Positions 25-55,731 of a DNA stretch of 64,000 nt are shown piece after piece (position 1 is the first letter of the stretch; every line of letters begins with the position of its first letter). The notes below the pieces were generated by a model. That model was not told where the DNA came from and made no database searches. It worked only from the letters and a program-made list of their open reading frames with translations. Source of the DNA: Octopus vulgaris. Taxonomy: Eukaryota. Where the stretch lies: assembly GCA_951406725.2 (NCBI GenBank), contig OX597819.1:81406001-81470000 (forward strand), read 5' to 3'. The translations under genes and the position numbers were made by a program.

Positions 25-123
25 TTCCTTGTATTTCCTGATGAGAAGACGGAATAATACAACCTTCATTCCTTCGGAATTAAGAGTATGCAGTCTTCGA
101 AACATATGTCGAAAGTAAAGGAA
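25..123 (+). ncRNA. Minimal type I hammerhead ribozyme motif
   Basis: CTGATGA 38-44; stem II GAAGAC(45-50)/GTCTTC(93-98); GAAA 99-102; palindromic stem III A-CATATG-T; GTC cleavage triplet ending at 110; stem I TTTC/GAAA plus TTCCTT/AAGGAA. Confidence 0.8.
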
Positions 124-312
124 TTTTGTTAAAATCTTCGTTCAACTCCATTCTTTTCATTTATTCATATAAAAAAACACAAATTTCCACACACGAACAC
201 GGGGTTCGGCCCTTGGCATGTAACTTCAACCGTGTTTTACTGACGTGAATTTGCTACCCAGGTATCGATTAACCGAATTATCAATACTAGGATAATTCAT
301 TCATCTACTTAA
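124..312 (+). mobile_element. 3' tail of the HHR-bearing (Penelope-like/retrozyme) element, running into (TA)n
   Basis: Follows the HHR and ends at (TA)n at about 314. A diverged reverse-complement copy lies at about 59098-59280 (shared CTTCAACCGTGTTTT, TGACGTGAATTTGCTACCC, TAGGATAATTCA). Confidence 0.6.
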
Positions 313-364
313 AATATATATATATATATATATATATATATATATATATATATATATATATATA

Positions 365-580
365 CTAGACTAGACTACCCGTGATCCGTTGTGTCACTAA
401 TAGTTCAAGGTACAAAAAAAAACTACGTATCTCGGGAACCCATGGTCCGATTTACGCGAAACTTATTTTATTCGTTTGTACTCCTATTTTTCAGAGTATT
501 TTCCCGCTATGCGCCGGTTTGGCTGTATTAAATTACAGACAAGCATGCAAGCAAGCAATCACAGACTTTTAGTATTATAT
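365..580 (-). mobile_element. Non-autonomous Helitron-like element
   Basis: On the minus strand it ends in a GTGA..TCAC hairpin followed by CTAG|T. Homologous in reverse to 44461-44914. Confidence 0.55.
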
Positions 581-794
581 ATATATATATATATATATAT
601 ATATATATATAGAGAGAGAGAGAGAGAGAGAGAGAGAGAGAGAGAGGGGGAAGGAGGGAGAGAGAGAAAGAGGGAGGTGAGAGAGATACTTGCAGATATA
701 GCTGGTAGTTCAAAACAACTCTAGTGCAGTAAAAATCAAAATGCATTTTAATAAAAATATTTATATCGCATGCTTTCGATAATCTTTCTTAAGA

Positions 795-52400: not shown

Positions 52401-53004
52401 CCATTAATTATCTCCCCCTATATTTGAGATTAAAGTATTGGTGCTTTGATGGAGAGTTTCCAAAACACAAATACAAAAAAACAATCTCAGCAATTTTTTT
52501 TTTGTTTGTTTCTACTTTCTCTTATTAGCACTTACTAAAAAACAAACATAGCCATTAAAAAAATATATTACACAACAAATAAAATGAAATACAAAATAAA
52601 ACAGCATATTCCTTTGCAGGCTGTTTTTATATATTTTTTCTGGTATATTTTTTCTCAAGAAGAGAATTTATCAGACTTGAGGTGATTTTTGAAAGTATGT
52701 GTTTATACAGCCAGTACTGATGTCCAGCTAATCTAGAAGATTCCATTTAGCTTCTCCAAAACATATATATTCTATCAATGCTTCTCATATAAATTTCTTC
52801 ATAGCCACCACTATCATTCAGATTGCTGCTTCTAAATTTAGACAGTAAACAGATTTTTTTATGCGATATATGGCGGAAAGAGAACAACAAACTGTCAGCA
52901 ATAATTATTTCATGCTAACTTTCTAAAATAACTCCAAAATCTAGTTAGCTGCATTATTTTTATAGTTAAGTGAGCTGATGCTGACTTCATTTCAATTCCT
53001 TTAA

Positions 53005-53844
53005 CACTTTGCCAACCATAGAAGTCACTTCTTCATATCTCATAGGAGTGCAAGAATGAGATTTACTTAGTGGGTGCAAACCCAGGCCCAAATTTTTTAC
53101 AAACTAGTTTGATATCTTAATATCATTAATGAAAACAGGTGTAATAATAATCATTATTTCTATATTTGTACATCAATAAAATCATAAATCCAATAATGGA
53201 AAAATGTTTCAAATAAAGTTTTTCAGGAGGATGTTCAAAGCATTTTCATTGACCCCTAAAAGTTTTAGGGGGATGTACTTGCACTCCTTGTAGCCCCTGT
53301 TCCCAAGCCAATGATGGGAGTCACCAGTATCACCTAATGGAGATGATTTTTATGGCGCCACACACTGTTGTGGTTCATACTACATTATTTGAATTTTAGG
53401 AAATGTATAGAATACATATTTCTTTGTATTTCTCAGATTGGAATCAAATTAGAATTGATAGGTATGGAGACATGGAATTCATCAAAAGTTTAGGTATCAG
53501 GTTCAATACCAAAGGGTGCAAGTCACTATCATCACCATCACTGAAGCGCTGCTCTCCATAAAAGAAGATTGGGAAAGTGAAGCCATTAAGGCATACGTAA
53601 CATAGTCTGAAATATACGCTTCAGAAAAAAAATCATAAATAGATGATAAAATATTCCATAAATGGAGATGTAATAGACATTTTAACACTCTTTAATGTAT
53701 GTATCACACAGCATAGAATGAATATAATATTTGTTCTGTATCACAGGAGTCACCAGTGATATGCCATAAATCAACGTAGTAGTTTATATAGTGAACAAAT
53801 GTATATGGTCACAAAATAAAAGAGCGTAATTTGTAGGCAAAGGG
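53005..53844. mobile_element. piggyBac-like non-autonomous element (~840 bp)
   Basis: TTAA|CACTTTGCCAAC ... GTAGGCAAAGGG|TTAA. Confidence 0.6.
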
Positions 53845-55062
53845 TTAATGGAACCAGTCATATGGAACTCTTTAAAATATCTGAGTCTTTATGACAATGA
53901 ATTGACTGCAAAACAAAACAACAAAAATTCAAACTAACTAGAATTTTATAAATATAAGAATTTTACATTTCAACAAAATTTTGTTTAAGATATTCATCAT
54001 TATCATCATTTTTGTTGATGCCATCATCATCAATTTTACATCCCATTTTTCATGCTTGCATGTGTTAGATGGAATCTGTTGAATCTGATTTTCTATGCTT
54101 GGATGCTCTTCACATCATCAGCCTTCTCTTGTTTCCAAGCTAAGTAAATATTTCCCCATGGCTGGACATATTTCTAAAGGAGACCAGAAATGAATAACAC
54201 CACTTGTATGACAGTGACACTCATTTACAGTCATGTTATGTCAGGATAAGGCTTAAATCAGTTTCAGTCTACTGAACCTATTCACAAGGTTTAGGTTGAT
54301 CTGAGGTTACAGTAGAAGACACTTGACCAAGATTCCAGGAAGTGGGACTGAACCTAAAACCACATGGTTAGAAGGCAAACTTTTAACTACACACGGATAC
54401 TTGCATCTAAAATATAAAAAAAGAAAATTAGATACCCAGTGACACATGTTAAAGTTGATTTTGCATCCATTCTTTAAAAATATAATAGCCAATGAATTAG
54501 CAAACATTTTATTTATAAATCATTATTCAAATATGTGGTGTTAGATAGTTTATAGAAGGGAGATAATCATTTCTTCATAGTATTTGGGAGGATTAAAAAG
54601 CTTGAATTTTAAATTAAGAAATAGGGAAAAAGATACAAAAAGAAATTATTCCAATCCCAGATGTTGTGTTCAGTAAGAATCTGTATTCAACACAGATTTT
54701 ACAATTTTCATTCTTTTATTCTTTTACTGGTTTTAGTTATTGGACAGCAACCATGTAGGAGTGTTGCCTCCGTACGTTTGTTGACCCTTAATACACAATT
54801 TCTTTTTTTTATGTCTGGTAATTATTTTATCAATCACTATTTACTGAACTACTCAGTAACAGGGGCATAAATGCAAACCCTGACACAGATACACACACAT
54901 GTAAATATATGCATATATAAACCCAGAAAGACAAGAGGAAGATTCAGGAAGACATTGGAGAACTGGTAATGATTGTTCTCAGAATTCTGCACCTTATAGA
55001 GGAATAGACAAAGGACCAAAGTGACTGGTGAAATGCAAAGCCAGAGAATATATATATATATA

Positions 55063-55731
55063 TATTAATAATATAAGGGTAAATAATTATTAATTTTAAA
55101 ATCAACAATTATTTCCAGATAGATTTCGGTATGGAAATATAACCATTATCGGTAGGAACCTTTTTAAAAGGTTCTCTCTCTCTCTCTCTATATATATATA
55201 TATATATATATATATAAAAAGGGTAAGCAACAGGTTGCTTAGCCACATACCGAAAAATTAGAAATAGCAGTCAAAGACCACTTCTTTCTATTTTCTACAA
55301 ATATAACTCCACTTATAACATATACATGTAACTCACATATGTAAAACAGGATGAAAAATAACGAAAACAAAGTCTTCGATTAGTTACAGACGCATTTCTG
55401 GGTCAGAATTATAAACAAATCCATTCCCTTCTTCAGCGTAACATTCCTTTAGATAGATTTACAAATGTTAACTTACATACCTCTTGCTTTCCAACCTTGC
55501 GCCATCGGAGATAGCATGAGACAATTAACACAGGCTAAATCCACATAGATGAATGAATTCGCATTTTTCCTCCAAAATTTTACCACGTGCGTCACAAAAA
55601 TAGTTCCTCAGGAATAGAACTATGGATTGTCATAAGGGATTGAAAAATTCCATTATTAATAATATAAGGGTAAATAATTATTAATTTCAAAATCAACAGA
55701 ATGTTATGCTGAAGAAGGGAATGGATTTGTT
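55063..55731 (-). mobile_element. Second retrozyme/Penelope-like element: 591-nt period, one full hammerhead plus an inverted half-hammerhead
   Basis: 55063-55107 is repeated at 55654-55698; 55699-55731 is the reverse complement of 55414-55446; shares CCACATAC.GAA..TTAGAAATAGCAG.CAAA with the 33.6-kb element. Confidence 0.7.
55383..55442 (-). ncRNA. Type I hammerhead ribozyme motif
   Basis: Minus strand reads GTTACG CTGAAGA A GGG...CCC A GAAA TGCG TC TGTAAC: 6-bp stem I, GUC triplet; stem III is probably a CpG-decayed ACGCGT. Confidence 0.7.

Follow-up and report, generated by a model that had tools for sequence, protein, structure and literature searches.

Penelope-like elements (PLEs) are known to carry minimal type I hammerhead ribozymes. 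In the published accounts as cited here, single motifs of this kind do not cleave and dimers cleave weakly (PMC4209133), and the dimer model is confirmed by a review (PMC6765202). Work on the PLE Poseidon of Anolis reports that the element protein cuts AT-rich DNA with an internal start of reverse transcription, and that the hammerhead cleaves only with protein and is dispensable for in vitro insertion; no RNA-seq reads ending at the cleavage site are reported there (PMC11167929). Animal retrozymes, which have been linked to the pseudo-long terminal repeats (pLTRs) of PLEs (bioRxiv 10.64898/2026.07.22.740005), reach up to 120,000 copies in axolotl, and more than 6,000 motifs are given for Acropora (PMC7229834). 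PLE hammerheads, cores with a U3-A8 pair, opposite-strand pairs and thousands of copies per genome are already in print. A repeat annotation of Octopus vulgaris mentions PLEs, and neither "hammerhead" nor "ribozyme" occurs in its main text. Here, we analyzed a 64-kb window of this genome (G000:C6:81406001-81470000; "the window" denotes this whole stretch) for which an earlier note had listed roughly 16 hammerhead-type motifs, and searched the 2.80-Gb assembly (227 contigs) for their relatives. The window motifs are, with high probability, type I hammerheads that mark the 5′-truncated pLTR ends of about a dozen PLE families, a likely origin that the earlier note had missed, PLEs being a known source of such motifs. 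The phenomenon is real and largely explained by known PLE biology; its scale and one testable variant of the ribozyme core are what is notable.

The window (GC content 28-42%) is rich in microsatellites, and about half of it is masked as simple repeats or by similarity to other loci examined. A strict type I descriptor, which demanded the exact core, at least 4 bp in each of stems I and II and a self-complementary stem III, was run on the window, with 20 local dinucleotide shuffles and the reversed window as controls, and on 70 evenly spaced 10-kb pieces of the genome (700 kb) with four shuffles. It recovered one canonical and two U6-variant motifs in the window (the latter at 3102, minus strand, and 13043, plus strand) versus none in the shuffles or the reversed sequence, so that shuffled DNA did not yield counts comparable with the real ones (0 versus 3). 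The 700-kb sample gave 17 matches versus 0, 0, 0 and 0. A descriptor without an inserted base at position 9.1 overlooks most of these families, and a plain MAFFT alignment of the window motifs was uninformative because their stem II lengths differ. Ten window motifs also served as genome queries; for each, a first look gave 171-2,841 candidates, and 40 of these were scored and 20-30 fetched. Family profiles, most of them seeded from the window itself and forming an incomplete library, detected 17 window motifs from 12 families and none in the reversed window. These comprise 15 of the 16 motifs listed earlier, all belonging to genome-wide repeat families with a hammerhead core, and two decayed copies that had been overlooked (34886-34935, minus; 55694-55731, plus). 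The sequence quoted in the earlier note was present at every coordinate; only the motif at 8055-8087 stayed unconfirmed. The motifs are arranged along the window as follows.

25..123, plus strand: family B hammerhead with a canonical core, a 54-nt extended stem II, stem III ACAUAUGU and C17; the sole window copy that is canonical with all stems perfect (strict descriptor, core at 38, plus strand), set within a ~310-nt 5′-truncated pLTR fragment of a Hydra-clade-like PLE that ends at (TA)n, with an inverted partner just upstream of the window.
3070..3107, minus strand: family H, minimal hammerhead matching the family consensus, with U6 (CUGUUGA), an A9.1 insertion, a 4-bp stem II and an ACGU stem III.
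8055..8087, minus strand: unconfirmed, because it has just one weak homologue among the loci examined and one pattern match elsewhere; possibly a 5′-truncated U3-A8 motif of a rare old family.
8280..8353, plus strand: family F, truncated at the core, with the 5′ strand of stem I and C3 gone; the family consensus is complete, with stem I restored and a 10-nt palindrome as stem III.
10445..10485, plus strand: family N, retaining the 5′ core and stem II, with stem III and the 3′ strand of stem I lost; relatives (L259, L285) have ACGAUCGU and a complete stem I.
10700..10748, minus strand: family I, retaining the core and a 6-bp stem II; stems I and III are weak, in the consensus too.
10915..11016, plus strand: family G, GAAA box and stem III decayed; the consensus is complete, with GAAA-ACGAUCGU restored and a 77-nt stem II domain.
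12576..12612, plus strand: family O, a minimal motif whose core has the U3-A8 covariant; stem I has decayed here.
13038..13075, plus strand: family H, U6/C7 subfamily, stems and core matching the family consensus.
20948..20997, minus strand: family H, U6/A7 subfamily, stem II decayed.
28008..28047, plus strand: family C, minimal hammerhead with an intact core and a 6-nt deletion in stem II; these 6 nt are regained in the consensus.
33632..34676, minus strand: family A compound insertion, in the order inverted 3′ arm (34483-34676), 5′-truncated copy with tail, second copy, (TA)n.
33811..33893, minus strand: family A copy agreeing with the consensus in core and stems (stem I of 6 bp, ACGCGCGU, stem II with an A.C mismatch at its base).
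34402..34484, minus strand: second family A copy, truncated inside stem I, with the palindrome of stem III (ACGCACGU) broken.
34886..34935, minus strand: family H, decayed copy absent from the earlier list.
39515..39569, minus strand: family J, 5′-truncated and decayed; the consensus is complete, with the core restored, a U-A closing pair and ACAGCUGU.
40534..40614, minus strand: family D, intact core, partly decayed 54-nt stem II domain, stem III ACAGCUGU.
55383..55442, minus strand: family E, intact core, wobble changes in stems I and III.
55694..55731, plus strand: partial inverted partner of the family E copy, the 5′ half of the motif only; absent from the earlier list.

The motifs starting at 10449 and 12576 in the earlier list were confirmed through relatives at other genome loci, and the family consensus sequences bore out the claim of several unrelated families with conserved core order, unrelated stems and a palindromic stem III: core and pairing are present in them. 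The type I core (C3 U4 G5 A6 N7 G8 A9 ... G12 A13 A14, with A15.1-U16.1 and H17) is complete in the consensus of families A, B, C, D, E, F, G, I, J and K, the last of which has no copy in the window, and family O has the published U3-A8 covariant. Stem sequences are unrelated across 11 families, with 4-10 bp in stem I (imperfect in F and I) and 2-12 bp in stem II; stem III is palindromic, weakly so in I. As in the PLE hammerheads of Cervera & De la Pena 2014 (PMC4209133), there are CUGANGA and GAAA cores, an extra base at 9.1 (families C, H, I and O), palindromic stems III that imply dimers, a U3-A8 covariant (family O), and many consensus families per genome, mostly as solo truncated copies, with opposite-strand pairs 100-700 bp apart. 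In contrast to the short-looped rows of the supplementary alignment in that study, the stem II domain spans 30-77 nt and the stem III palindrome 6-10 nt in several octopus families; unlike the hammerheads described there, families A, D, E and K lack the G10.1-C11.1 pair, having a mismatch beside G12 at its usual site (A.C, A.G, C.A and A.A, respectively), and family H has U6. The cited part of supplement file 2 of that study has no octopus entry. A relative of family A at L027 does have a G-C pair at G10.1-C11.1. Six cores had been called intact in the earlier note; the core bases are indeed there in all six, but the strict descriptor is passed by 25-123 alone, the copy at 28008 having lost 6 nt of stem II, the stem III palindrome being broken at 34402, and families A, D and E carrying their mismatch even in the consensus. 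The majority of the window copies have decayed and are expected to be inactive alone.

In predicted folds of the family consensus sequences, the stem II domains have z values of -1.8 to -4.0. Stem III fails to close as a hairpin in 10 of 11 families (0 kcal/mol; -0.9 in F), with predicted stem III self-duplexes of -7 to -13.3 kcal/mol in 8 of the 11 (-1.7 in C and H, 0 in I). The family A copies at 33811 and 34402, the window's only close same-strand pair of one family (591 nt apart), have a predicted cross-duplex of -7.9 kcal/mol; in a folded 900-nt transcript of the pair, stems I and II are kept in one copy and the other is misfolded.

The genomic distribution of the families points to PLEs. 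All are dispersed high-copy repeats, found as fragments of 150-500 nt whose 5′ ends are ragged and whose 3′ ends are fixed, the latter followed by (TA)n in 18/20 copies of family B, 25/30 of H, 11/15 of E, 21/33 of K and 12/43 of A versus a background of 3.8%; 38 of 96 sampled relics have an inverted partner of the same family within 1 kb. Family B has a same-strand GIY-YIG-type endonuclease open reading frame (ORF) upstream in 5 of 30 loci, with 3′ untranslated regions (UTRs) 85-92% identical, and one of its loci runs from a pLTR through a reverse transcriptase (RT) ORF with a DKT motif and an endonuclease to a partial pLTR. For family H, a Zn-finger/GIY-YIG ORF, a 3′ UTR, the H motif and (TA)n follow one another in this order at two independent loci, which share 86% identity over 1,696 nt; for family F, a GIY-YIG-type ORF lies upstream at a single locus of 25. 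In family K (L351-L380), 150 scored endonuclease matches reach at least 89% identity with open frames of up to 745 aa, and 20 of its 30 endonuclease loci have a 9-nt hammerhead tag downstream, at ~0.9-1.2 kb in those measured; judged by sequence, K is probably a young Hydra-clade-like PLE family. Its hammerhead is unusual in having a stem II of 2 bp, an A.A mismatch and a stem III palindrome of odd length; an intactness count of 0/20 for K was discarded as an artefact, since it demanded 3 bp of a 2-bp stem. The B and K parents resemble endonuclease-containing (EN+) PLEs of the Hydra clade, stated to carry hammerheads (bioRxiv 10.1101/2021.04.23.441226 / PMC8557442), in having DKT for DKG and a C-terminal endonuclease, and the H parent resembles those of the Neptune clade (PMC8557442) in the linker Zn-finger that precedes GIY-YIG; these clade calls rest on diagnostic motifs, not on a tree, and by them the parent of the window motif at 3070..3107 would be a Neptune-type PLE. 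Further features shared with EN+ PLEs (PMC8557442) are insertions in partial tandem, a truncated copy in inverted orientation and a tail on one side; the window's family A locus has just this layout of partial tandem and inverted arm, which is drawn for PLE insertions in bioRxiv 10.1101/2021.04.23.441226. Tails of families A and B, at about 90-140 nt, are longer than the 30-40 bp of EN+ PLEs in PMC8557442. The octopus elements are also like Poseidon of Anolis (PMC11167929) in the AT-rich target, in a presumed internal start of reverse transcription giving a tail and in a pLTR hammerhead; unlike in Poseidon, where cleavage was assayed, the octopus motifs are known from sequence alone.

That the motifs might be chance matches in AT-rich repetitive DNA is barely credible. 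Bare CTGANGA is somewhat frequent in the window (39 versus 26.5 expected), a relaxed descriptor finds 2 versus 0.63, and 8055-8087 may be such a match, but chance is refuted for 15 of the 16 motifs: the strict descriptor gives 17 versus 0 in 700 kb, exact family patterns reach 1,649-11,928 copies versus 0 in controls, and copies matching the consensus make better hammerheads than the decayed ones of the window. Several observations weigh against the assignment to PLEs. A parent ORF was not found for families A, C, D, I, J, N and O in the 20-30 loci inspected per family, and the parent link of E and of G is one ambiguous locus each, so that for these nine families PLE membership is proposed on the basis of architecture; the window itself has no similarity to PLE proteins. 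Even where parents are at hand, the Pfam matches of the H-parent endonuclease (GIY-YIG, E=0.0012) and of the B reverse transcriptase (RVT_1, E=0.0011) fall below the curated cut-offs, and the B endonuclease has no Pfam GIY-YIG match. Taken whole, the window motifs do not surpass shuffles in folding (z -1.2 to +0.1); no hammerhead is among the 150 of 182 Rfam window matches listed, which hold only microsatellite-driven miRNA matches, and none reached the gathering score in five loci that include a canonical-looking array. The Rfam hammerhead models appear insensitive to these forms. At two loci, moreover, a pLTR fragment adjoins the body of another family, which shows that adjacency by itself may be misleading. 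There (L271:1628-4700, G000:C10; L276:5200-7770, G000:C1), a pLTR piece of H and of A, respectively, is fused to the 5′-truncated RT-endonuclease body of another PLE family, which suggests template switching or targeting between PLE families; as H and A parents these bodies were ruled out, each having its own, different 3′ hammerhead, and endonuclease matches at L162 and L134 were likewise rejected as H or E parents because they belong to other families. Families A, C, D, I, J, N and O might instead be independent non-autonomous elements, retrozyme- or SINE (short interspersed nuclear element)-like, moved in trans by PLE machinery rather than truncation products. Their missing parents, the true tandem retrozyme-like arrays in this genome (L281, 353-359-nt spacing; L304) and the proposed derivation of animal retrozymes from pLTRs (bioRxiv 10.64898/2026.07.22.740005) speak for this, yet it is improbable: B, H and F, which do have parents, show the same ragged 5′ ends, fixed 3′ ends, optional tails and inverted partners; parents are scarce even for these (1-5 of 25-30 loci); and no multimeric arrays of the seven families were seen. 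Like non-LTR retrozymes (PMC7229834; bioRxiv 10.64898/2026.07.22.740005), the octopus families are type I hammerheads in high-copy animal repeats, but unlike those 150-450-bp tandem monomers with canonical loop contacts, the window motifs are dispersed truncated fragments, solo or in one partial tandem. The retrozyme-like arrays of this genome lie outside the window: L281:3080-4560 (and its minus strand) holds seven canonical CAAUA-loop hammerheads in both orientations, and L304 (362-nt spacing) and L305 hold a U3-A8 version.

With truncated PLE pLTRs as the preferred origin, published PLE biology would account for the layout. The element protein would nick AT-rich DNA and reverse transcription would begin just 3′ of the hammerhead; most cDNAs would end after 150-500 nt, which would make the hammerhead-bearing end the commonest insertion. 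The parent would gain an active ribozyme for processing the element RNA either by pairing of the palindromic stem III between two tandem copies or with the protein assisting. By analogy, we infer that cleavage in the parents is dimeric or assisted by protein; solo fragments would be inert by-products, drifting neutrally and decaying.

Family H departs from the type I core at the invariant A6: its pattern with U6 has 11,928 exact copies in the genome (0 in the control) versus 379 with A, C or G at this position. Among the latter, C, as expected of a transition, prevails. U6 is thus the master state of the family. The earlier note had listed a variant family at 3070, 13038 and 20951, and the family is real; the copies at 3070 and 20951 are, however, on the minus strand. 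The patterns used allowed changes at N7 and H17 only, with G7 not counted; among the first 100 matches listed, the subfamilies U7/A17, U7/U17, A7/A17 and C7/A17 are each abundant, and G17 is at background level (79 copies). Such variation fits continued ribozyme-type constraint, as judged from sequence. A homologous sister family with the canonical A6 exists, with a different stem I and loop. The closest natural precedent is the A6C hammerhead of phage Bcep176, which is slow in Mg2+ and rescued by Mn2+ (PMC3088659, PMC7151607); like it, family H has a natural substitution at the invariant A6, but unlike that single example with C6, it has U6, fixed in an animal retrotransposon lineage of 11,928 copies. 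We found no natural A6U/CUGUUGA hammerhead in the literature, where the 2017 RNA Biol paper on dimeric PLE hammerheads and some supplements may describe U6.

The very large genome-wide population proposed earlier was borne out by exact pattern counts and by sampled density. Short canonical cores ending in GAAACGT have 19,860 exact genome matches versus 570 for the control, which was the backwards pattern, pairing not being required in either; family O has 1,649 (control 0) and family K 3,422. Together with family H, these sum to ~36,000 exact copies in 2.8 Gb, with all families of long stem II uncounted. In the 700-kb sample, 7 of the 17 strict matches come from one tandem array; the genome-wide extrapolation for strict canonical motifs runs from ~40,000 with this array excluded (Poisson 19,000-74,000) to 68,000. 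Profiles detected 96 relics in the sample (0 reversed), 33 of them through profiles seeded by the sample alone and 63 without these, i.e., 0.9-1.4 per 10 kb or about 250,000-500,000 genome-wide. Observed and expected numbers agree roughly between sample and exact counts (2 versus 3.0, 4 versus 5.0, 4 versus 0.9, and 1 versus 0.4). Relics thus occur once per 7-11 kb and strict canonical motifs once per 40-70 kb, so that the earlier figure of one motif per 4 kb overshoots ~2-fold and ~10-fold, respectively. The window is ~2-3 times denser than the sampled mean (2.7 versus 0.9-1.4 per 10 kb), partly because most profiles were seeded from it. The 2017 RNA Biol paper on dimeric PLE hammerheads reportedly counts about 150,000 PLE-linked variants. 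The ~36,000 exact-pattern copies found here exceed the numbers in PMC4209133, obtained by different methods, for Schistosoma (~2,000 plus 1,300), coelacanth (4,000) and Xenopus (9,000). No cephalopod-type hammerhead census was found in the literature, where the 2017 paper and some supplements could hold one. Overall, the observation in the earlier note is partly confirmed and largely right.

Whether any of these copies still act as ribozymes bears on two further explanations. For family H, the sequence evidence would leave a dead and an active motif about even. There is only a little less than an even chance that the U6 motif is catalytically dead, the family having spread because cleavage is dispensable and the fold is kept for protein binding or by recent common descent: changes at A6 are deleterious in Mg2+ (PMC3088659, PMC7151607) and ribozyme-dead Anolis PLE mutants still insert in vitro (PMC11167929), but four abundant subfamilies vary at N7 and H17, the free positions of the hammerhead, and G17 (79) and non-U6 (379) are at background next to 11,928. 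The earlier note had further proposed that sense copies in introns cleave host pre-mRNA. Of 60 non-repeat ORFs of the window, none was recognized as a host exon; a sub-threshold laminin-EGF Pfam match at 39680-39856, plus strand (E 2.5e-4), was rejected as an exon, being without splice context and probably due to chance. The 240 kb analyzed in four myosin gene spans, which were oriented by exon matches and assumed to be continuous between them, hold 8 sense and 17 antisense relics (p=0.11). Antisense bias is common in many transposons. Cleavage of host pre-mRNA often enough for selection against sense copies, or for their co-option, is improbable and at present unsupported. In its favor are the tens of thousands of undamaged-looking copies, the antisense trend, same-strand pairs that could dimerize (the window's family A; 18 of 96 sampled relics, many of them in two tandem arrays) and the genic depletion described for Xenopus retrozymes (bioRxiv 10.64898/2026.07.22.740005); but one myosin span drives the trend (3:12, versus 5:5 in the others), two of six descriptor-positive copies in the spans are sense, and published metazoan PLE hammerheads show no or weak cleavage as monomers (PMC4209133) or need the element protein, with no reads ending at the site (PMC11167929). 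A wider reading is possible but unlikely: that the U6 hammerhead of a Neptune-type lineage with more than 11,900 copies of identical core still cleaves with the help of a dimer, protein or Mn2+, amid at least 36,000 undamaged-looking copies and 250,000-500,000 relics, and that paired or assisted intronic copies cut host pre-mRNA and leave a strand bias.

Apart from hammerheads, the window holds near-perfect inverted repeats resembling miniature inverted-repeat transposable elements (9724-9853/10279-10408, 130 nt with a 425-nt spacer; 13813-13997/14275-14459, 185 nt with a 277-nt spacer), a long hairpin at 13232-13314, and an abundant bipartite SINE-like repeat with halves around a (CA)n/(TA)n tract (5657-6148, 14858-15243, 22475-22921, 35084-35602, 46034-46449, 55731-56526 and others). 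Four ORF fragments (17867-18423, minus; 38665-39054, plus; 56671-56961, minus; 57922-58287, plus) presumably resemble proteins of long interspersed nuclear elements and mariner-type transposons; Pfam gave only weak C1/PHD matches for 56671-56961. The segment 15800-22000 has a strong excess of T over A (AT skew to -0.27), with a GC-richer stretch at 15.8-16.8 kb that contains a (GTT/GCT)-rich open frame, and none of its scanned non-repeat ORFs has a Pfam match.

Collectively, these findings make the octopus genome a natural library of hammerhead variants that is very large and comes with exact copy numbers. If the wider reading of cleaving U6 copies were true, its ribozyme population would be among the densest dispersed ones described. 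Since intact and mutated copies are present by the tens of thousands, selection against sense intronic ribozymes could be tested with real power given an annotation, and family H is a natural experiment on whether hammerhead cleavage matters for the transposition of PLEs.

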